A DNA stretch of 64,000 nucleotides from Gammaproteobacteria bacterium (GCA_963662545.2 CAXXLL010000003.1:2016001-2080000); one strand, 5' to 3'. Counted from the stretch's first letter, positions 12,309-35,588 are shown. Notes: generated by a model from the letters alone, not told the origin. A program made the numbers and translations.

Positions 12309-12469
12309 CAGGTTGTTGAAAAACGATGTCCCTATCGTTTTTCAACTCGCAAGACGAAAACGCGGTTTCCGTCTTGCTCCATCAATCAAGCACATAGCGT
12401 GCTCGATTGATGCCGGCACATCCCTGTGCCGGGCACAGGCTGTCGAAAAACGAGTTTTTCAACAGCCTG
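12309..12469. mobile_element. 161-bp MITE with CTAA target-site duplication
   Basis: CAGGTTGTTGAAAAA ... TTTTTCAACAGCCTG TIRs; CTAA at 12305-12308 and 12470-12473; internal hairpins. Confidence 0.8.
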
Positions 12470-26474: not shown

Positions 26475-28070
26475 ATGAAAGATCTCGACACCATTGTCGT
26501 TGGCGCCGGCTTTACCGGCCTTTATGCACTCTACCGACTGCGCGAAAACGGTCTCGAGGTTCGCGCGTTCGAAGCGGGAGAGGGCGTTGGTGGCACCTGG
26601 TACTGGAACCGCTATCCCGGCGCGCGTACCGACTCGCCCAGCTACATGTACCAGTTCTGGTTTTCTGACGACCTGTTACGGGAGTGGGACTGGAGCGAAC
26701 GGTTCCCGGCACAAGAAGAAACCGAACGGTATCTCAACTTCGTCGCCGACAAGTTCGATCTGCGAAAAGACATTCAGTTTAATACGCGAGTCGTTGCGGC
26801 GGCCTTCGATGAGACGGCCGGCCGCTGGACTATCACCACCGCAGACGGTGAGCAGTGCTCGGCGAAATTTTTGGTGATGGGTACCGGGGTGTTGACCAAG
26901 ATTGCCTTGCCGGAGATACCCGGGCGCGATGATTTCGGAGGCGTTTCGTACCACACGGCAGCCTGGCCGAAAGCGCCGGTCGACTTCAGCGGCAAACGCG
27001 TAGGTGTATTCGGCACGGGTGCAACGGGGATTCAGGTGATCCAGACGATCGCAAGTGAGGTTGGTCACCTCACCGTATTTCAGCGAACGCCGACCTACAC
27101 CATACCGATTCGCAACCCAAAATATGATGACGCCGAGCGCGAAAAGCTGCGCGCCCGCTACCCTGAACTCAAACAGCGCGTGCACGAGACGTTTGCGGGC
27201 TTCGATTTCACGTTTGATCCGCGGAGTATTTTCGAGGTCTCAGAGAAAGAACGGCGGAAGGTGATGGAGGCGTTGTGGGAGGACGGTTCCTTGAGCTTTT
27301 GGGTCGGGTCTTTCGCCGATGTTCTGACGGATCAGGCCGCCAATGACATCTTCTCCGAATTCGTGCGGGAAAAGATCCGCGCCCGCATTAACGATCCGGA
27401 AGTGGCTCGTAGGCTGCTCCCGACGGGATACAGCTTTGGTACCCGCCGCGTGCCCCTGGAGAATCATTACTACGAAGCCTTCAATCGTGCCAATGTGACA
27501 TTGGTGGACTTGCGTGAGACAGCCATCGAAAAAATCACTCCGCATGGCGTAACAACGACCGCCGGCGAACATGAGCTCGACATCCTGGTCTACGCGACCG
27601 GCTTCGACGCCGCCACCGGTGCGCTGACGCAAATAGACATCTTTGGGCGCGACGGCAAGATCCTTCGGGACGTGTGGGCCGAAGACATCCGCAGTTTCAT
27701 GGGCCTGCAGGTTCATGGTTACCCGAATATGTTCATGGTCAATGGACCTTTGTCACCGGCCGCGGCTTTCTGCAACGTTCCGACCTGCATTCAGCAACAA
27801 GTCGACTGGATTTCGGACTGCATTGCGTACGTCCGGCAGCAAAAGCATCAATCGATCGAGCCCAGCGCCGAGGCGGAAGCACAATGGGTCGAACACAGCG
27901 ATGAACTGGCCAATCAAACGCTCTTTCCCACGACCAATTCGTGGTACATGGGCGCCAATATCGAGGGTAAAAACCGCCGGCTGCTGGCGTACGTCGGCGG
28001 CGTTAATGTGTACCGCGGGCTTTGCGACGAAGTCAAAGCCAATAAATACGAGGCGTTCGAACTCGTTTAA
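26475..28070 (+). CDS. Type I Baeyer-Villiger monooxygenase
   Basis: GAGFTG, GGTWYWNRYPG, FGGVSYHTAAWP fingerprint, GTGATG, ATG. Confidence 0.96.
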   Translation: MKDLDTIVVGAGFTGLYALYRLRENGLEVRAFEAGEGVGGTWYWNRYPGARTDSPSYMYQFWFSDDLLREWDWSERFPAQEETERYLNFVADKFDLRKDIQFNTRVVAAAFDETAGRWTITTADGEQCSAKFLVMGTGVLTKIALPEIPGRDDFGGVSYHTAAWPKAPVDFSGKRVGVFGTGATGIQVIQTIASEVGHLTVFQRTPTYTIPIRNPKYDDAEREKLRARYPELKQRVHETFAGFDFTFDPRSIFEVSEKERRKVMEALWEDGSLSFWVGSFADVLTDQAANDIFSEFVREKIRARINDPEVARRLLPTGYSFGTRRVPLENHYYEAFNRANVTLVDLRETAIEKITPHGVTTTAGEHELDILVYATGFDAATGALTQIDIFGRDGKILRDVWAEDIRSFMGLQVHGYPNMFMVNGPLSPAAAFCNVPTCIQQQVDWISDCIAYVRQQKHQSIEPSAEAEAQWVEHSDELANQTLFPTTNSWYMGANIEGKNRRLLAYVGGVNVYRGLCDEVKANKYEAFELV

Positions 28071-28159
28071 TTGAAAAACTAGAAGGTTTGCCTGCCAGGG
28101 TGCGTGGGCCCCAGGCAACCATCCCTTTTGAACGTCTTCGGCTCGCAGCGCGCCCGAGA

Positions 28160-28344
28160 CTAGCGCGCCCGCCGACGCTCGTGTGTGGGTACGAGCCGAT
28201 CAACGATCCCAACGGCCGCATCGGCCTTGGCTGCGAAAGAATCGTCGACCAATCGCCCGCCGCGTTTTTGGATCTCGCCGTCGATGATCACGGTGTCGAC
28301 ATCCTCGGCAGTTGCGGGCAGCACGATCGACGTCACCGGATCGA
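28160..28344 (-). pseudogene. C-terminal fragment of a metal-dependent amidohydrolase, cut at an oriIS-like end
   Basis: DPVTSIV......DVDTVIIDG...KRGGRL typical amidohydrolase C-terminus. Confidence 0.65.
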
Positions 28345-28501
28345 AGGTATAAGCCGAATAAACGCCCTTTTCCGCAAATCCGTCGAGTACCGCCAGGTCA
28401 TCCAACAGTCGTCAACCTGCGCTTCGAGGCGGTGTTGGCCGGAATTGCGCCTCGGAGTCAGCAGGAATCCCGCATTTCAGGGCGATTTTCGAGGTGTTCC
28501 G
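28345..28501 (-). repeat. IS91/ISCR oriIS-like end, copy 1 (157 bp)
   Basis: Near-identical to 30274-30430; minus strand ends GGCGTTTATTCGGCTTATACC, resembling ISCR oriIS termini. Confidence 0.75.
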
Positions 28502-28616
28502 GCGTCGATATAGCCCATGTCCCCTTTATCGAAACCTGCCTCCGTCCGGCTCTTGATCTAGACCGCTTGTACATTGATTTTAATCCGCTCACGCAGCGAT
28601 TATTCTTTAACTCAAC

Positions 28617-29681
28617 TTAATTGGTTAATGGTTGAGAATTGTCTTTCTGAACAACTCCCACCTCTCCTCTCCAGCCACTTGTTCTTAGCCATGTTTCAAA
28701 CGTGCTGAGATCTGGATGGAGGTCGCGCAGCATGTTTATATCGCGAGAAAGACCAAAACGTTCAATGAAACTGAACATATTCGATAGCGCCGGGGTCTCA
28801 GGTTGATTTATCGCTTTGTATTCTGACAGTGTGTAGGGCTCAAATACCGCGTCTATGCCGGTTACACTTTGGAAGATCTTGCCAATCTCTTGAATGGGTA
28901 GAGAATCTGAAATAATCCGCAATGTCCGCCCTCTCCACTGCTGTTCGTGGTTGAGAATTTGTGCTGCAAACCACCCAATATCGTTGAGGGTCACCATCGG
29001 CCATAGAGCCGAGCCGATAGGTACCCTAAGTAATAGGCGTGGCTTATCTCGTACGACTTCAAGGCGAACCGCTGCTCTATCCCCGCCACCTCGAAACATT
29101 CGGCCAGCTTTAAAATTTTCCATATAAGGCGCCGTCACAAATATCGTTACATGCTCGGCATACCATCTAACCGACTGCCTCTGCTCATTTATAAATTGCT
29201 CTACGCGCGCTTTAGCGTCGAAGTGAGGAGCCGGGAATAATCCACCGGAAGGGCTATCCGTAGCATCCAGTGAGCTGAAGACGAAATGTTCAACACCTTC
29301 TTGACGCGCGAGTTCCAATATCAGCTTTCCCTGTTGTACGTCGGTGTCCTCAGCCATTCGATAAAGCGGCCAAGGATCCGTGCCCAGCTTGCCGTGATGT
29401 GCCCAAACATCTTGAAGGCATGACCAAAAGTTTGTATTGCAAAAGATCGAATGCGCACCACCAATAGCAGCTCTGAGGCTTGCTTCGTTGTCAACATTGC
29501 CCTTTTCGAGCTTCACCTTGCCGCGCCCCAACTTTTGCAATTTGCGACACTCGCTACCTGATGGGTTGCGCGTAAAAATACGTATTTGCTTAAACGTATT
29601 TTTTGATTTCAGCAGGTTCTTGATTACGTGCTGGCCCATTGCTCCCGAGCCGCCGATAACAAGCAGTGTTCGCTCAATCAA
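28617..29681 (-). CDS. NmrA-family NAD(P)-binding protein
   Basis: IGGSGAMG, HFVFSSL, PHFDAKARVE, YMENF; more AT-rich than flanks. Confidence 0.88.
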   Translation of the reverse strand: MIERTLLVIGGSGAMGQHVIKNLLKSKNTFKQIRIFTRNPSGSECRKLQKLGRGKVKLEKGNVDNEASLRAAIGGAHSIFCNTNFWSCLQDVWAHHGKLGTDPWPLYRMAEDTDVQQGKLILELARQEGVEHFVFSSLDATDSPSGGLFPAPHFDAKARVEQFINEQRQSVRWYAEHVTIFVTAPYMENFKAGRMFRGGGDRAAVRLEVVRDKPRLLLRVPIGSALWPMVTLNDIGWFAAQILNHEQQWRGRTLRIISDSLPIQEIGKIFQSVTGIDAVFEPYTLSEYKAINQPETPALSNMFSFIERFGLSRDINMLRDLHPDLSTFETWLRTSGWRGEVGVVQKDNSQPLTN

Positions 29682-29759
29682 GAATTGCTTCCTTTGTGAA
29701 TTCCAACAGTTGCGATTGGGTTTATTGCCAAGATAGCGGTGAACGATCGCTATCTCTCA

Positions 29760-30140
29760 CTACCTATCCGTCACAATCTTACGATATGTGCGTTTCGACA
29801 CAATTTCATTCGTGTCATTGAACGTAAAAATGTCGATTGCATGCACATCGAGTTTCTTGGCGGCGCATTGAACGTGAATTTCGTGGATGATGCTGTCATC
29901 GCACGAATACGCTCGGATCGTTTTGTATGAAATGCCTGGATTGGATCGGAAGGTATCGTTTATCGCATTGCGTACTGCGACAATACCTTCATATTTAGCT
30001 CCGGCCGGAGCGGGACCAACGGCGAATTCCCATATTGGGTGTTTCGCCATCAGAGCAAGCGCAGCCTCTGTGTCGTTATCGTCGAATGCCTGCACGAATT
30101 TCGAAGCCAGCATTTCCCTTCTAGCTTTTTTGGATTTCAT
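29760..30140 (-). CDS. SnoaL/NTF2-like protein
   Basis: FVQAF...D....LALM, G..AVR, DIFTF...I..K.TYRK. Confidence 0.75.
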   Translation of the reverse strand: MKSKKARREMLASKFVQAFDDNDTEAALALMAKHPIWEFAVGPAPAGAKYEGIVAVRNAINDTFRSNPGISYKTIRAYSCDDSIIHEIHVQCAAKKLDVHAIDIFTFNDTNEIVSKRTYRKIVTDR

Positions 30141-30682
30141 ATATCTCGCTCTCCACCCTCGCTCTCCACTCGAAACCGAAACTAATTCTCAGACTTGCAC
30201 GCTCCGGATTTAATTTTCAAGCTCGGACAATAATCCCAGTTGCCGGAGTTGACTGGCTGAAATGAACCTCGCTAGGTATAAGCCGAATAAACGCCCTTTT
30301 CTGCAAATCCGTCGAGTATCGCCAGGTCATCCAACAATCGTCAACCTGCGCTGCGAGGCGGTGTTGGCCGGAATTGCGCCTCGGAGTCAGCAGGAATCCC
30401 GCATTTCAGGGCGATTTTCGAGATGTTCCGACCGTTGGCACGATAGCGACCGTGCCGCGTCGCTGGGTATCGCAGCCTCGGAGTAGCATGTGGGGATGCC
30501 CGTGTATCAGGCGAACAAGCTGGCCTGGGGCGGCGCCCGACACGGGGGAAAATGCCGGGCGGCGCCGGCAGCGTCTTTACGGTCGAGGTGGGTGAGGATC
30601 TTCTCGATGACCACCGGATCCTCGATGCAGGCGATGATCTTGACGCGGCCGCCGCAAGTCCTACAGGTCTCGATGTCGATGT

Positions 30683-30729
30683 GGCCTACAGGGATGTAGG
30701 TCAGGGGCGTGAGCAGGACGCGGAAGCTT
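30683..30729. repeat. 47-bp mini-insertion (family C) in transposase codon FN|ID
   Basis: GGCCTACA-GGGA-TGTAGGTC hairpin; removal restores RVFNIDIETC. Confidence 0.8.
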
Positions 30730-30761
30730 TGAATACCCGCTTCAAGCGCTGCGCCCAGGTC

Positions 30762-30812
30762 GCCGCTCTTGCGCATCCCTGCGCCCGCGGCATTAGTGCA
30801 TCCCTGCACGTC
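30762..30812. repeat. 51-bp mini-insertion (family A) in AM|TW
   Basis: GCGCA-TCCC-TGCGC and GTGCA-TCCC-TGCAC hairpins; removal restores AAMTWAQR. Confidence 0.88.
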
Positions 30813-30941
30813 ATGGCTGCCCGGCGTTCGGCGGGCGTTGTGTCTTCAGGCACATCCGACGCGCCGGCCTTGCTGCCCTTGCCGCGCTTGGCCGGCGTCA
30901 CCTGCGCACGATGCGCGCTGTTGGGGGCGAACACGCCGTGA

Positions 30942-31013
30942 CAAATTTATCTGGAATAAATTTGGACAACCGAAGGTTGCCCGAAGGGTGAGGAACAGGG
31001 ATGTTCCTCATCC
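30942..31013. repeat. 72-bp mini-insertion (family B) in RF|HG
   Basis: Four hairpins; removal restores NLTRFHGVF. Confidence 0.88.
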
Positions 31014-31369
31014 AATCGCGTCAGGTTGACCCTGGGCTTGGGCACCAGGGCGACCAGGCGGGCGATAAAATCCAACGGCTCGAAGATGACGTGCGTGGTG
31101 CCATCTCGGTACGGCGTCTTGAGTTGGTAACGCACGTTGCCGTTGGTCGTGAGCGACAGCCGCTTTTCCGACACCGCCGGCCTTGCAATATAGCGGCACA
31201 AACGTTCCAGCTTCTTGCGTTCATCGGCCCTGGCCGCGACCCCCGCATGCAGCGAGAAGCCAGCCACCGTGCCCACCGAGTTAGCGAACGGCTCATTGCA
31301 ACTCGGCAGGGTCTGCAGCGTGAACACCTTGCGCCCTTGGCTAGCGGCCCCACCGCGATGCGGTACGTG

Positions 31370-31421
31370 GCCGCTCCAGCGCATCCCTGCGCTCCGCGGC
31401 ATTCGTGCTTCCCTGCACATC
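31370..31421. repeat. 52-bp mini-insertion (family A) in SI|TYR
   Basis: Removal restores GHSITYRIAVGP. Confidence 0.85.
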
Positions 31422-31523
31422 ATCGAGTGGCCAAAGAGCTCATCCAGCGGCCCCGCTTCCCTGGCCTCCCCGGACAGATAGCGGTTCTCGGTATCACGTT
31501 CCAGCAGCCCTTGACGCTCCAGA

Positions 31524-31595
31524 CAAATTCGCCAGGAGCGAATTTGGACGCACGCCGTGCGCCCGCAGGGGGCGCGCCAAGGATGGCGCGCATCC
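31524..31595. repeat. 72-bp mini-insertion (family B) in RF|LE
   Basis: Four hairpins covarying with 30942-31013; removal restores RVGRFLERQG. Confidence 0.88.
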
Positions 31596-31730
31596 AAACG
31601 CCCGACGCGGTGCGCGATGGTGTGCGTCAATTGGGTGAGTTCGGTACTCGTCGGCGCCTTCAACCAGCGAAACCGCGTGCTCGATCCATTGGCGGCATCG
31701 ACATAGACACCATCCAAAAAAATCATGTGG

Positions 31731-31781
31731 GCCGCTGCTGCGCATCCCTGCGCCCGCGGCATTAGTGCATCCATGCACGTC
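31731..31781. repeat. 51-bp mini-insertion (family A) inside the HUH motif
   Basis: Removal restores LNLHFHMIFLDG. Confidence 0.88.
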
Positions 31782-32035
31782 AAGTGAAGATTTAGATTGA
31801 GCGCACTCCCAAATCGTTGGATCAGCGTGACCGCGCCAGTGCGAGCCGCGGTGCAGGAAAAGCCCGCCTTTTTGATCAAGTGCGTGGCAATGCAGCGGTA
31901 AACGATGCCGAGCACCTGGCCCATGATCGCCGGACGGCTGGCAAACAAAAAACGTAATGGATACGGAAAACTCAATACCCATTGGCGCACCGGCTGCGCG
32001 GGAAAGACCTCGTCCACCAGCAGCGCCGCACTCTC

Positions 32036-32082
32036 GGCAATTGCTCCTGCATTCCTCTACCTACTGCATCCCTGCAGTCGTC
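32036..32082. repeat. 47-bp mini-insertion (family C) in MAE|SAA
   Basis: ACTGCA-TCCC-TGCAGT hairpin; removal restores RRMAESAALL. Confidence 0.8.
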
Positions 32083-32128
32083 AGCCATGCGCCGGGCGCC
32101 ACAACTGCCGCAAAAACCGCGCCGTTTG

Positions 32129-32180
32129 TGACGTGAAGGGATTCACTAATGCCGCGGGCGCAGGGATGCGCAGGAGCGAC
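32129..32180. repeat. 52-bp mini-insertion (family A, inverted) in the Zn-finger Cys codon
   Basis: Removal restores VAFSCKRRGFCGSC. Confidence 0.85.
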
Positions 32181-32495
32181 CAACTGAACGCCACGCAGTG
32201 CTCGGCATGACAGCTCGCGCACCGAACGCGCAGAAAACCATGCTCGAGGCGTCCGCATTTGCGGTAGGCCTCGAACTCGCGCGCAACGTATCCCGGTAAT
32301 TCCCGGCCCTGTTCGGCCATCAGCGCTGAGAAGACTGGATAGTGTTGGTCGATTATCTGATAGAGGAGGGTCTGCTCGGGGCGGTGGCGCTCGTAGTACT
32401 CCGCCTCGCCCGAAACCGAGCCCGCGTCCGTGCCCGCAGGAATTCCTGCCATTTATCGCATCCTTGCGATATCGTCTCCTCATACAGCTTACCAC

Positions 32496-32552
32496 TATGG
32501 CCCGACACGCGGCGATCGCATCCGGCTAGCCGATACCGAGCGGTGGATTGAA
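32496..32552 (+). pseudogene. 57-bp fragment resembling the urease alpha subunit N-terminus
   Basis: YGPTRGDRIRLADTERWIE matches the UreC pattern (Y/F)GPTxGD(R/K)(I/V)RLADTxLWIE. Confidence 0.6.
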
Positions 32553-32979
32553 GCTGGGCTCGACGCAGTTGTAAGCGTCAACCGCGCCAGTGGGACGCGG
32601 GGATCAAAAAGTGATCTGAATCTCGCCGCGCACGGCGAAAGGCGCCCCCGGTGTCAGCCGCAGCGCGTCCGACTGACTGCCCTGGATGAAGGATTCGTCG
32701 GCGAGATTCTCGAACCGCATCTGAAATTCGAGATGCTGAGAGTACTCCCATTGGACGAAGGCATCGGCGCGCACGTAGTCGTCGAGGCGGAGGGCGAGTT
32801 CGTCGGGGTTGAGACTCGCCTGCCGTCCGCCAACATAGTTGACCGCCAGGCCAAGCTTGAGGTCTTGTGGACGCCGCAACGATGCAGTGTACGTCGTCAG
32901 CAGGCCGCCTTGATGACGCGGGGCATTCAGCGCGCGCGTGCCATCCGGGATGAAGGGGTCGTTAGTGATCTCGGTGTCG
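32553..32979. repeat. 427-bp direct repeat, copy 2
   Basis: Matches 26011-26437. Confidence 0.92.
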
Positions 32980-34766
32980 AGGAAATTGTAACGGGCACGC
33001 AGCGCCATCGATGACGGCAGGTTCATGTTGAGTTCGACGTCCAGGCCCAGGTTTCTCTGCTCGCCGGTCTGTATTTCGAACCCCGGATTGCCCGGCGCGT
33101 CGACGGTGACATCCGTCTGTCGGATGCCGAACACGGCGGTGTCGAATGAAAACCTGCGATCGGACGATTCCCATCGAATCCCCGCTTCAATTGCCTTACC
33201 CAGCGTCGGTGACAGCTCTTTGCCGTCCGGTTTGAGACCTTCGTTGGGATCGATGGACTCGCTGTAGCTTGCATACCAGGTGAGGCCGCGGTCGGCGATG
33301 TGGACCAAGCTCACCCGCGGACTGAAGCGTCCCGTGGCGTTATCGAAACGCGAAAGGACGGTGCGATCAGAACCCGATTGATCGATGTAGTCGAAGCGGC
33401 CGCCGAACAGCAGCCGCCAGCGGTCGTTGATCGTCCAAAGATCCTGAACATACGCAGATATCTGCCGCCGCTGCTCGGCCGACTGGCGTTCCGGCGTCAG
33501 CAGGGGAAATGGTTGCCCATAGACGGGATTGAGTGGATCGATGGCAAAAGGCGCTAGGTCGGAATCGGAGCTGAGAAGCGTCACGTCCTCGTTTAAAGCT
33601 GTTCCCTCGATACCCAGTAGAAGGTCATGACGCCTGTTCCAGATCGTCAGTGGTCCGGCGGCTTCAATCTGAATGACCCAGGCGTCGTTTTCCTCGTTAC
33701 GATTTTGCGCTTCGCGCAGGATCTTGCGTCCATCGAATCCGGAAGGTTCAACCGCAGTACCATCGACCCGGGTGCTTTGCGCCTGCATGTCGATGCCGAT
33801 TTCCCAGGCAGGATCGAGACGAATGCTGGTCGACAATTGCACGGTCAAGCCTTCGATTTCGGCGGGTCCGGAAGCAGGTTCACCCAGAAAGCGATCGCTC
33901 GGCAGTCGTGGCAGGCCGTCGAGAGCGATGACGCCGGTATCCAGGAGGCGTTCGTCGCGCACGAACTCGACCGAGGCAAATACGTCGATCCCCAAAGTGG
34001 GCTGCCATGCCAGTGACGGCGCCACGAACCACCGGTCGTTCTTGACGAAATCCCGAAATGTATCGCCCTGTTCGCGGGATGCGACCAGCCGGTACTGCCA
34101 GTCATCGCTGTGGGCGATCGGTCCGGTGGCGTCGACGGTGAGCACCATCGCGTCGAAATATCCGAACTCGGCGGAAGCTTCGAGCAGGGGTTCCGATTTC
34201 GGCCGCTTCGTCACGTAGTTTATCGAGCCGCCGGGTTCCCCCGGACCCTGCAGCGCGGCGTTCGGGCCTTTGAGAATCTCGACTCGTTCGATGTTGACGA
34301 GCGTCCGGGACGTGAGCTGACCGAGTGAATCATTGAGGCCGTTGCGATAAAATGTCGAGTCGCTGAATCCGCGCAGCATGACTTCGTTGAAAGAACCGCC
34401 GTCGGACGCGATGCTGATAGCAGAAGTCGCGATATCGAGCAGGTCGGAAAGCTGCAGATAGCCGCTTTGATCAATCAGATTTTCGTCCAGCGCTTCGACG
34501 CTGATCGGGACCTCGCGGGAGGGCACGGGCAGTTTCGTGGAGTGCAGGCGTTCGCTGTTTTCGGCCGTAGATTCTTCGATTATTTCAATCGTCGGTAGTG
34601 AAGTGGGTTCGGGTTCCGCTGCTAACGGAATAGTCGCGTTAATCGGCGAAAAGAATAGTATCGCGCACCAAATGCGCAGGCGTTCCATGCCACCCAATGC
34701 CGGTCGCTGAACGCCACCGCCGCCGTGCCCCGCCGAAAGTGCCTCTTTGGAGATCAATACGAACAT
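32604..34766 (-). CDS. TonB-dependent siderophore-type receptor (start may be 34688)
   Basis: NIERVEILKGP...GEPGGSINYVTKRP plug motif; beta-barrel ending in Phe. Confidence 0.93.
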   Translation of the reverse strand: MFVLISKEALSAGHGGGGVQRPALGGMERLRIWCAILFFSPINATIPLAAEPEPTSLPTIEIIEESTAENSERLHSTKLPVPSREVPISVEALDENLIDQSGYLQLSDLLDIATSAISIASDGGSFNEVMLRGFSDSTFYRNGLNDSLGQLTSRTLVNIERVEILKGPNAALQGPGEPGGSINYVTKRPKSEPLLEASAEFGYFDAMVLTVDATGPIAHSDDWQYRLVASREQGDTFRDFVKNDRWFVAPSLAWQPTLGIDVFASVEFVRDERLLDTGVIALDGLPRLPSDRFLGEPASGPAEIEGLTVQLSTSIRLDPAWEIGIDMQAQSTRVDGTAVEPSGFDGRKILREAQNRNEENDAWVIQIEAAGPLTIWNRRHDLLLGIEGTALNEDVTLLSSDSDLAPFAIDPLNPVYGQPFPLLTPERQSAEQRRQISAYVQDLWTINDRWRLLFGGRFDYIDQSGSDRTVLSRFDNATGRFSPRVSLVHIADRGLTWYASYSESIDPNEGLKPDGKELSPTLGKAIEAGIRWESSDRRFSFDTAVFGIRQTDVTVDAPGNPGFEIQTGEQRNLGLDVELNMNLPSSMALRARYNFLDTEITNDPFIPDGTRALNAPRHQGGLLTTYTASLRRPQDLKLGLAVNYVGGRQASLNPDELALRLDDYVRADAFVQWEYSQHLEFQMRFENLADESFIQGSQSDALRLTPGAPFAVRGEIQITF

Positions 34767-34787
34767 AGTTCCGACGCTAGGATTGTT

Positions 34788-34815
34788 TTAACCTGTAATT
34801 TACCGAAAATTAACT
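34788..34815 (+). promoter_or_regulatory. Three TTAACC-like boxes at 11-bp spacing (putative OmpR-family binding site)
   Basis: TTAACC-n5-TTTACC-n5-TTAACT between the divergent receptor and regulator genes. Confidence 0.6.
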
Positions 34816-34898
34816 TTACAGCGTATTTTGCGAGCGTAGAGTATTCCAAAATGAGAATACCTGATCTAACGAGTTTGAATGAAGCTTGCCGGTGATAC

Positions 34899-35588
34899 AT
34901 GATGAACATATTACTTGTCGAAGACGACTTCGATGTTGCCCGTAACATCTGCGAGTATTTCGAAGCGCAAGGACATGACGTCGAATGGGCGCCCGACGGT
35001 TTGATCGGTCTCGAGTGCGCGACACGCCAGCACCGTGATGTCATGATTCTCGACATCGCCTTGCCGCGCTTGTCCGGCACGGACTTGTGCCGCCGGTTGC
35101 GGCAGCTCGGGCTTACGAGCGTGCCGATTCTCATGCTCACCGCGCGAAGTGATCTTTCCGATAAGCTCGAAGCCTTTAAGTTCGGAGCGGACGACTACGT
35201 GGTCAAGCCGTTTGCGCTGGAGGAGCTCGAGAGCCGAATTCTCGCGCTCGTGCGTCGAACGGCCGGAACGGAGGCCGGTCCGCTGTTGCGAGTGGCCGAC
35301 CTCGAATTCGATACCGCCACGCATACGGTTAAGCGCGGCGACATCGACGTTTCGGTCACGGCCACCGGGCGCAAGATACTCGAAGCACTAATGCGTAACA
35401 CGCATCGCGTTGTTTCCCGCCAGGAAATCGAGCACGTCGTGTGGGGAGACGACCCGCCGCGAACCGATTCGCTCAAGATACATATTCATTTGCTGCGCGA
35501 GGCAATCGACAAGCCGTTCGATTTCAATTTACTGATCGCCGTCCGCGGTGCCGGATACAGGATCTGTGCCAATAATGAAAATGCTTAA
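34899..35588 (+). CDS. OmpR/PhoB-family response regulator, ColR-like
   Basis: LLVEDD, ILDI.LP, MLTAR, GADDYVVKPF, WGDDPP..DSL..HIH.LR..IDKPF. Confidence 0.93.
   Translation: MMNILLVEDDFDVARNICEYFEAQGHDVEWAPDGLIGLECATRQHRDVMILDIALPRLSGTDLCRRLRQLGLTSVPILMLTARSDLSDKLEAFKFGADDYVVKPFALEELESRILALVRRTAGTEAGPLLRVADLEFDTATHTVKRGDIDVSVTATGRKILEALMRNTHRVVSRQEIEHVVWGDDPPRTDSLKIHIHLLREAIDKPFDFNLLIAVRGAGYRICANNENA

Follow-up and report, generated by a model that had tools for sequence, protein, structure and literature searches.

A putative free-standing form of the tRNA-linked repeat core, inserted in an IS91 transposase pseudogene and multiplied in a gammaproteobacterial genome

Two 72-nt copies of a dispersed four-hairpin element, here called family B, interrupt an IS91-family transposase pseudogene in the 64,000-nt stretch of DNA that we analysed (the window; C3:2016001-2080000 in a gammaproteobacterial genome of 5.58 Mb and 58% G+C). 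Judged by its sequence and predicted fold, family B appears to be a free-standing copy of the structured core of the tRNA-linked repeats (TLRs; Rfam RtT, RrA/RrB/RrF). Our analysis supported homology with the TLR core, conservation of structure, discrete insertion, a T-loop-like target, and expansion in this genome. The explanation that we favor on balance for the whole, with some reserve, is that the TLR core is a non-autonomous mini-insertion, which spread here via a folded single strand. According to a study of RrB RNA (PMC8144298), TLRs have been known in E. coli since 1978 with no origin or clear function, rrB is one of the 22 TLRs of that species, RrB is a processed RNA, and its conservation was reported, within the scope of the survey, in Enterobacteriales only.

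Alignment with an uninterrupted IS91 paralogue (C3:2499002-2500549, a 516-aa open frame) revealed the extent of the insertions in the pseudogene. All eight inserts are absent from the intact paralogue and stand out in the pairwise DNA alignment as eight discrete extra stretches of the window copy (Table 1). B1 brings a TAA stop into the transposase frame, and B2 amounts to 24 codons that are read through; an in-frame coding role of the inserts was ruled out by the B1 stop codon and the two 47-nt families. The single contig from an RNA run, covering 32091-32295, retains the family A insert, with no sign of RNA-level removal there; neither B1 nor B2 was covered by this run. A few bases 5' of its start codon, the IS91 gene carries its own CA-AGGA-TG capped hairpin (window 32455-32470, minus strand), in whose loop the likely ribosome-binding GGA falls; the hairpin recurs at the paralogue at C2:725400, and the intact copy has a related sequence at the corresponding place. 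This arrangement looks like CsrA-type or self-sequestering control of transposase translation. Two 157-nt direct repeats, 97% identical (window 28345-28501 and 30274-30430), bracket a 1.9-kb segment of lower G+C content (about 50%) that adjoins the IS91 copy and contains an NmrA-like gene; this segment may be cargo of IS91-type one-ended transposition.

Table 1. The IS91-family pseudogene of the window and its eight mini-insertions (window coordinates)
Feature	Position	Strand	Evidence and remarks
IS91-family (Y2_Tnp) transposase pseudogene with eight mini-insertions	30513..32452	-	Pfam PF04986, E 4.9e-25; tblastn; DNA alignment
Fourth-family mini-insertion, 47 nt	30683..30729	+	CCTA-CAGGGATG-TAGG hairpin and a second AGGA loop; frame shifted; contig skips 47 nt
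Family A copy, 51 nt, two GGGA-capped hairpins, GGA strand in gene sense	30765..30815	-	Paralogue alignment
Family B copy 1 (B1), 72 nt, four hairpins	30942..31013	+	Paralogue alignment; empty form in contigs; model R1 77.8 bits (seed row)
Family A copy, ~52 nt, gene sense	~31370..31421	-	Paralogue alignment; contig skips 52 nt
Family B copy 2 (B2), 72 nt, B1 architecture	31524..31595	+	Paralogue alignment; empty form in contigs; model R1 74.9 bits (seed row)
Family A copy, 51 nt, gene sense	31731..31781	-	IS91 position shared with B-like inserts of two paralogues
Family C copy, 47 nt	32037..32083	-	CTGCA-GGGA-TGCAG hairpin and a second AGGA loop; paralogue alignment
Family A copy, inverted, ~52 nt, compensated GTGAA/TTCAC stem	32129..32180	+	Paralogue alignment; contigs skip 52 nt

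The original prediction held that these mini-insertions conserve secondary structure rather than sequence, and the comparison of the two window copies agreed with it. The four stems on which it was based are present in both 72-nt copies, on the plus strand and where they had been placed. In an ungapped comparison, 46 of the 72 bases are identical between B1 and B2; of the 26 base pairs, 15 are the same in both copies and 10 differ in both partners yet remain Watson-Crick, none has changed on one side while remaining paired, and one terminal pair is broken in B2. Unpaired positions are identical in 15 of 20 cases. Folding z-scores against dinucleotide shuffles were -4.2 and -3.1 on the plus strand and -5.0 and -4.5 on the minus strand. 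In B1, loops 1 and 4 contain GGA and loops 2 and 3 are GAA triloops, and the window copies share CNGGA in loop 1 and A-R-GGA-U in loop 4, giving at least two GGA loops per molecule. The statement on GNA loops needs one correction: the middle loop of B2 is GCC and not GNA, and sister copies have GCA or GAA there. The predicted change of the family A stem from GTGCA/TGCAC to GTGAA/TTCAC proved real and was located in the inverted copy.

Insertion at GA^AA, also proposed beforehand, was borne out by two kinds of evidence, namely the alignment with the uninterrupted paralogue and metagenome contigs that skip exactly these stretches. Comparison of filled and empty forms indicated a net gain of 72 nt at GA^AA, with no target duplication or flanking direct repeat. 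Empty forms read GTGG|AATCG, CCAGG|AAACG, CATGTGG|AAGTGG, and AACG|AATTT, and filled forms read ...GA[element]AA..., corresponding to a T-loop-like target S-G-A^A-W-Y that is read as GA^AA here. The T-loop itself, GGTTCGA^ATCC, is the target at loci L104, L013, L051, L055, and L120, and the E. coli 5S 3' end and four sites of the source genome all resemble it. Contigs of other runs skip 30941-31013 and 31523-31595, which amounts to 73 nt with a single G at each B site, and contigs also skip the 47-nt insert and family A inserts; such contigs may represent paralogues instead of alleles. The base 5' of the insert was A in filled and G in empty forms in all four comparisons. In IS91, where this position falls in a TTC/TTT Phe codon, the difference could reflect target choice; in a nested case, the G is required for the outer stem, and simple insertion does not explain the change. 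At one IS91 position, two paralogues carry B-like inserts where the window copy has a family A insert; the orientations are opposite and the junction bases differ, the junctions of the two families reading TG^A for A and GA^AA for B.

The conservation of structure extended to a family-wide alignment. An nhmmer search of the source genome yielded about 50 four-hairpin relatives, and a pattern scan of species genomes with 21 fixed bases, for which about 2 chance matches are expected in 596 Gb at equal base frequencies, yielded at least 120 loci in many Proteobacteria and other groups. The matches listed include Serratia, Yersinia, Salmonella, Brenneria, Methylomonas, Methylophaga, Microbulbifer, Pseudoalteromonas, Shewanella, and Ectothiorhodospira, as well as metagenome-assembled genomes (MAGs) labelled Zetaproteobacteria, Desulfuromonadales, and Flavobacteriales. 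In the uncurated alignment A1, which comprises 126 rows (123 scan sequences, to which we added both window copies and E. coli rrB), 85.9% of cells were paired compared with 69.4% after shuffling, 621 cells were doubly changed compared with 211 in shuffles, and the covariation score was 0.439 compared with 0.143, a value that none of the 500 shuffles reached and that exceeded slid controls (at most 0.098). Pairs with change on both sides numbered 15, an uninformative measure that 284 of the 500 shuffles reached. The model-fitted alignment A2 (136 rows, including about 30 neighbouring copies outside the pattern selection), which leans to its own structure, had double changes in 22 of 25 pairs and a score of 0.498 compared with 0.144. 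The covariation in these larger alignments surpassed every one of the 500 shuffles and every slid control, which places the structural conservation far outside chance. Covariation in the 126 aligned copies was strong in stems 1, 2, and 4. The pattern fixed stem 3 in full, the 3' side of the outer four pairs in stem 1, and the bases that close the loop in stem 4; because such columns carry no information, it is inner stem 1, together with stems 2 and 4, that provides the covariation evidence. Features that the pattern did not impose were also conserved: the 15 commonest strings of loop 1, covering 103 of the 126 rows, contain GGA, and GNA triloops cap stem 2 in 53 of 123 copies, with a closing C-G pair in 50. 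In 54-60 rows of A1, the base of stem 4 shows tandem G.A/A.G mismatches, and counts of G.T versus A.C mismatches (35 versus 24) give no strand signal for folding. Taken together, the aligned sequences suggest a core that is old and widespread and whose stems evolve by compensatory change.

A covariance model built from the 126 copies (R1) connected the window copies with E. coli. The window copies and E. coli rrB are seed rows and score by construction; in E. coli K-12, the model matched rrA, rrB, rrF, and one weaker sequence at 27 bits, with rrA and rrF, neither of them a seed row, scoring 71.4 bits. Weak matches at 12 bits (E about 0.1) lie in the window at 32052-32131 and 12404-12461, both on the minus strand, the former overlapping the family C insert.

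The assignment to the TLRs is based on the architecture of their core of about 72 nt, which comprises four hairpins: stem 1 with GGA in its loop, stem 2 often with a GNA triloop, stem 3 as a short CCC/GGG with a GNA triloop, and stem 4 capped by A-N-GGA-Y. In E. coli K-12, the four-hairpin core lying between the rrnB terminators T1 and T2 is rrB, and it is followed by an 18-nt copy of the 5S 3' end. By eye, hairpin order and linkers are alike in the window copies and rrB, and one alignment (A1) and one model (R1) hold both together with RtT-positive copies. The likeness covers the four-hairpin core, which the RtT consensus also contains, linkers of the form ACAAA...TTTGRAC...GCCCGNAGGG... (rrB; RtT consensus), GGA loops, and an insertion site that corresponds to the T-loop or, in 5S, to GGA^AC. 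Unlike TLRs, the window copies lie inside a protein-coding gene, have no adjoining gene for tRNA or rRNA (about 143 kb separate them from the nearest tRNA), and lack the 18-19-nt copy of an RNA-gene 3' end that is present in L104, L013, L120, and E. coli rrB; they end in ...ATCC, after which IS91 sequence follows. The core also occurs here in many orders, in contrast to the published survey, which was confined to Enterobacteriales (PMC8144298). At the Rfam cut-off of 45 bits for RtT (RF00391), two of the seven sources scanned passed, both of them tRNA-linked copies, L104 with 59.3 and L013 with 45.9 bits. Window 28000-35000 produced chance-level Rfam matches only at E<=10, with no RtT among them, and the best RtT match in the whole source genome scored 14.9 bits, below the cut-off, leaving the window copies unmatched; the RtT model likewise misses E. 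coli rrB at E<=1. The original prediction had named, as a refutation, an exact match to an already described REP/tRNA-linked repeat family with a known mechanism; half of this applies, as the element does match a described tRNA-linked repeat family, but one with no known mechanism.

Many copies from the scan sit in a partial tRNA or tmRNA 3' end, exactly in the T-loop GGTTCGA^ATCC...CCA, and T-loop copies at L104, L013, L051, L055, L091, and L120 lie downstream of an intact tRNA and terminator. In-silico excision followed by aragorn (17856 trials on copies with enough upstream flank) recovered a tRNA at two loci only, L089 and L027, indicating that most tRNA-like flanks are partial copies and not whole genes. 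The MAG contig L089 contains tandem tRNA-Ser-like units, each with one or two elements in the T-loop, and aragorn calls tRNA-Ser(GGA) for one unit after in-silico excision. In another taxon, at about 200-280 of L091, a family C-like sequence lies between the tmRNA-gene terminator and the tmRNA-linked element, and by this resemblance family C may also belong to the tRNA-linked repeat world. Searches of the literature on TLRs, RtT/tyrT, and ERIC inserts yielded no free-standing or intragenic copies and none outside enterics, although Rudd 1999, Sharp 1997, Cromie et al. 1997, and Wilson & Sharp 2006 may bear on this point. A mobilome preprint (10.1101/2024.07.17.603846) describes raised coverage of the tyrT/rttR region and no circles, a result that does not bear on mobility.

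The source genome is unusually rich in the element. At E<=0.01, R1 gave at least 63 matches (among the 150 of 2229 candidates that were scored), and under stricter filters at least 62 copies remained compared with 0-28 in 40 relatives, the highest number among the 41 genomes; a match was present in 24 of the 41, that is, in 23 of the 40 relatives and the source genome itself. IS91 genes harbor 23 of the 63 matches, which occupy at least six distinct positions; 19 are antisense to the gene and 4 are sense. Eight copies lie within 300 nt of a tRNA gene, three downstream and five upstream, and seven of the eight are co-oriented with it; the three downstream copies are co-oriented with tRNA-Pro and tRNA-Gln. 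The remaining copies are found in other small repeats, some in tandem. Between IS91 copies, the B1 insert is 95-97% identical, compared with 73-84% in the alignments around it, and one IS91 site holds three variants (B1, B2-like, and a third). Three IS91 copies with identical inserts (C3:2694821, 2702359, and 2710022) are also present, and many IS91-borne copies could have spread by IS91 duplication instead of new insertions. Nested or chained B-like elements were observed at C2:2168223-2168358 and C3:1649384-1649663, where hairpin 1 of the outer element encloses an inner copy of 72 nt, the intact outer form being present at C3:2354156. Family F, a shorter relative that starts with CGAAAAATTCG and lacks stem 2 (C2:1819544-1819750, C2:2528570-2528710, C2:2395156-2395296), forms tandem units of ~66 nt and also occurs in a larger palindromic repeat together with family C.

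The interpretation of the GGA loops as CsrA-type motifs, put forward in the original prediction, gained support from the homologue: RrB RNA binds CsrA and Hfq in vitro, and binding to CsrA is GGA-dependent, as a mutant with three GGA changed to UUU does not bind (PMC8144298). An RNA role of the B elements is therefore plausible by homology with RrB. A single csrA gene is present in the source genome. In some variants GNRA loops replace GGA, and GGA loops are missing from copies beside tRNA-Ser and tRNA-Gln, which means that binding to CsrA cannot be a property of all copies. One degenerate B-like element that lacks GGA loops (C3:2532589-2532678, minus strand; L008 of the source genome) has csrA 128 nt upstream of it and a tRNA-Ser gene 88 nt downstream, the three sharing a strand. 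The elements resemble the CsrB/RsmZ sponge RNAs and TwoAYGGAY (Rfam clan CL00106) in having two A-N-GGA-Y hairpin loops per unit, and the spacing of the two GGA loops would let a CsrA dimer bridge them; they differ in that B copies are dispersed, in genes, and in both orientations, and the window has no Rfam match to TwoAYGGAY, for which a sub-threshold match beside one Serratia copy was the only one. The argument that mixed orientation favors action at the DNA level turned out to be weak: orientation within IS91 genes is mixed, seven of the eight near-tRNA copies are co-oriented with the tRNA gene, GNRA-loop variants exist, the E. coli homologue is a processed RNA, and the mismatch counts carry no strand signal.

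The CA-(G/A)GGA-TG capped stem attributed to families A, B, and C was found in all three and additionally in the fourth, 47-nt family of the window (30683-30729). Genome-wide, 114 CA-NGGA-TG hairpins with three or more further base pairs fall into at least six repeat families, and plain 8-mers of the cap showed no over-representation. Further families built around one such hairpin occur, for instance, at C2:2460957, C3:2028426, C2:1218350, and C3:1299333-1299488; one is ~100 nt long and begins with TTAGCAGGCTGTTGAAAAAC, and another, partly tandem, has a GAGAAAGCCA...TGGCTTTCTC hairpin. Families A and C each had a match in 1 of the 40 relatives by exact pattern, a search that would miss variants with changed stems. 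The genome encodes seven Y1_Tnp (PF01797) matches, five of them full-length proteins, and many IS91 (Y2) copies, and the IS91 Y2 enzyme is a candidate for the mobilising enzyme. Flank scans revealed no B-like elements around the seven Y1_Tnp matches; repeats flank only one of them, at L005 of the source genome, and are ordinary GTAGGAGC-type REPs. At that locus (C3:128018-131332), a RAYT-like Y1 gene has classical GTAGGAGCCCGCTTGCGGGCGA-type REPs on both sides and represents a separate repeat system. Family B resembles REP/BIME-RAYT and IS200/IS605-derived palindromes as small non-autonomous hairpin elements whose stems covary between subfamilies, which do not duplicate their target, and whose target is short and sequence-specific. 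In contrast to these systems, no cognate Y1 gene is flanked by B elements, the element consists not of one imperfect palindrome but of four dissimilar hairpins whose loops are conserved, and the true REPs of this genome (GTAGGAGC type) are another family.

At eight enteric loci (L015, L021, L053, L067, L083, L084, L098, and L100), the element is embedded in a dispersed repeat of a different kind. Matches to the L098 flank were present in each of the 5426 E. coli genomes searched, with a median of 6 places per genome, and the E. coli annotation carries no label for this flank repeat, which we take to be ERIC/IRU with its known ~70-bp insert. Rickettsia palindromic elements and ~70-bp ERIC inserts are similar to the present inserts in being short, structured, and located in genes or other repeats, with a length divisible by three (72 and 51 nt here); they differ in that the stop codon of B1 and the frame-shifting 47-nt families argue against a general in-frame tolerance.

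These observations can be read in several ways besides the favored one. A minority possibility, though a serious one, is that the element is first of all a functional RNA module, in which selection keeps the hairpins as transcripts bind CsrA (and Hfq), and the copies inside genes either arise as by-products or supply IS91 transcripts with additional CsrA sites. The dependence of RrB-CsrA binding on GGA (PMC8144298) would fit such a module, as would loops 1 and 4 that both display GGA about 45 nt apart, two GGA loops each in families A, C, and the 47-nt family, the CA-AGGA-TG hairpin just 5' of the IS91 start, the RNA-like appearance of GNRA-loop variants and tandem G.A pairs, and the shared orientation of seven of the eight copies near tRNA genes. 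It is harder to reconcile with a GGA strand that is antisense in 19 of the 23 IS91-borne copies, with wobble pairs that give no strand signal and variants that lack GGA, and it leaves precise insertion at T-loop-like sites unexplained. We regard as rather improbable the idea, contained in the original prediction, that a single HUH-type ssDNA enzyme recognises the CA-NGGA-TG hairpin and moves all the families that share it (A, B, and C in that prediction, to which the 47-nt family is added here). The spread of this hairpin over at least six families (114 with three or more further pairs), family A and B-like inserts at one IS91 position, the lack of target duplication, frequent C-G closed GNA triloops, and the presence of both Y1_Tnp matches and many IS91 (Y2) copies point in its direction; yet no Y1 gene is flanked by these elements, the junctions of families A and B differ, and families A and C each occur in 1 of the 40 relatives by exact patterns, compared with 23 of 40 for B. 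To our knowledge, E. coli K-12 has TLRs without an obvious matching enzyme, which also counts against this model. Overall, our data offered the single-enzyme idea neither support nor counter-evidence, and the only hint was the shared position of B-like and family A inserts in IS91.

Spread mediated by RNA, with the element entering exposed loops of abundant RNAs (the tRNA T-loop, 5S, and tmRNA) and 5'-truncated DNA copies becoming fixed downstream, seems unlikely to us; the occurrence of IS91 inserts in both orientations speaks against it. It would explain why TLRs end exactly at the mature 3' end, as at L104, L013, L091, and L120, which end at ...CCA and repeat the downstream spacer, and it accords with targets that mimic the T-loop and with a left arm that forms a snap-back hairpin with the T-stem strand (GAACC...GGTTC), a feature also of the RtT consensus. 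There is very little to recommend the view that the inserts lack independent mobility and are old parts of IS91 lineages, copied only with IS91. Identical inserts in identical IS91 triplets and pairs would suit it, but it is contradicted by the presence of the family at tRNAs, in other repeats, and nested in itself, and by its occurrence in unrelated taxa; moreover, the insert is far more similar than its flanks, and different variants occupy one site.

Returning to the mini-insertion reading, the 72-nt unit would enter T-loop-like sites without duplicating the target, and in this way would have multiplied to at least 62 copies. Insertion would use a folded single strand, most likely ssDNA handled by some enzyme, and the folds would persist because copies that do not fold fail to propagate. 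Transcription of the GGA strand would yield, through its two GGA loops, a CsrA-type two-site ligand, as in E. coli RrB. A broader proposal, which we put forward tentatively, is that the TLR core might be the mobile element itself, targeting T-loop-like hairpin loops (its own GGA loop, tRNA, tmRNA, 5S 3' ends, and the centres of other palindromic repeats), so that TLRs and the ~70-bp ERIC inserts would be footprints of one widespread, enzyme-orphan mini-transposon, possibly with an RNA or snap-back single-strand intermediate. If true, bacteria would possess a form of mobility that has not been described before. In the present genome, the core appears to act alone, as a discrete 72-nt unit that enters T-loop-like sites, can be nested in another copy of its own kind, and has built up copies within IS91 genes. 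Our results extend the family well beyond Enterobacteriales and provide, in R1, a covariance model with strong covariation for the free-standing form, which is missing from current Rfam. They also offer a concrete model for the origin of the repeats beside tRNA, tmRNA, and 5S genes, and a natural system in which insertion chemistry and the link to CsrA could be tested.
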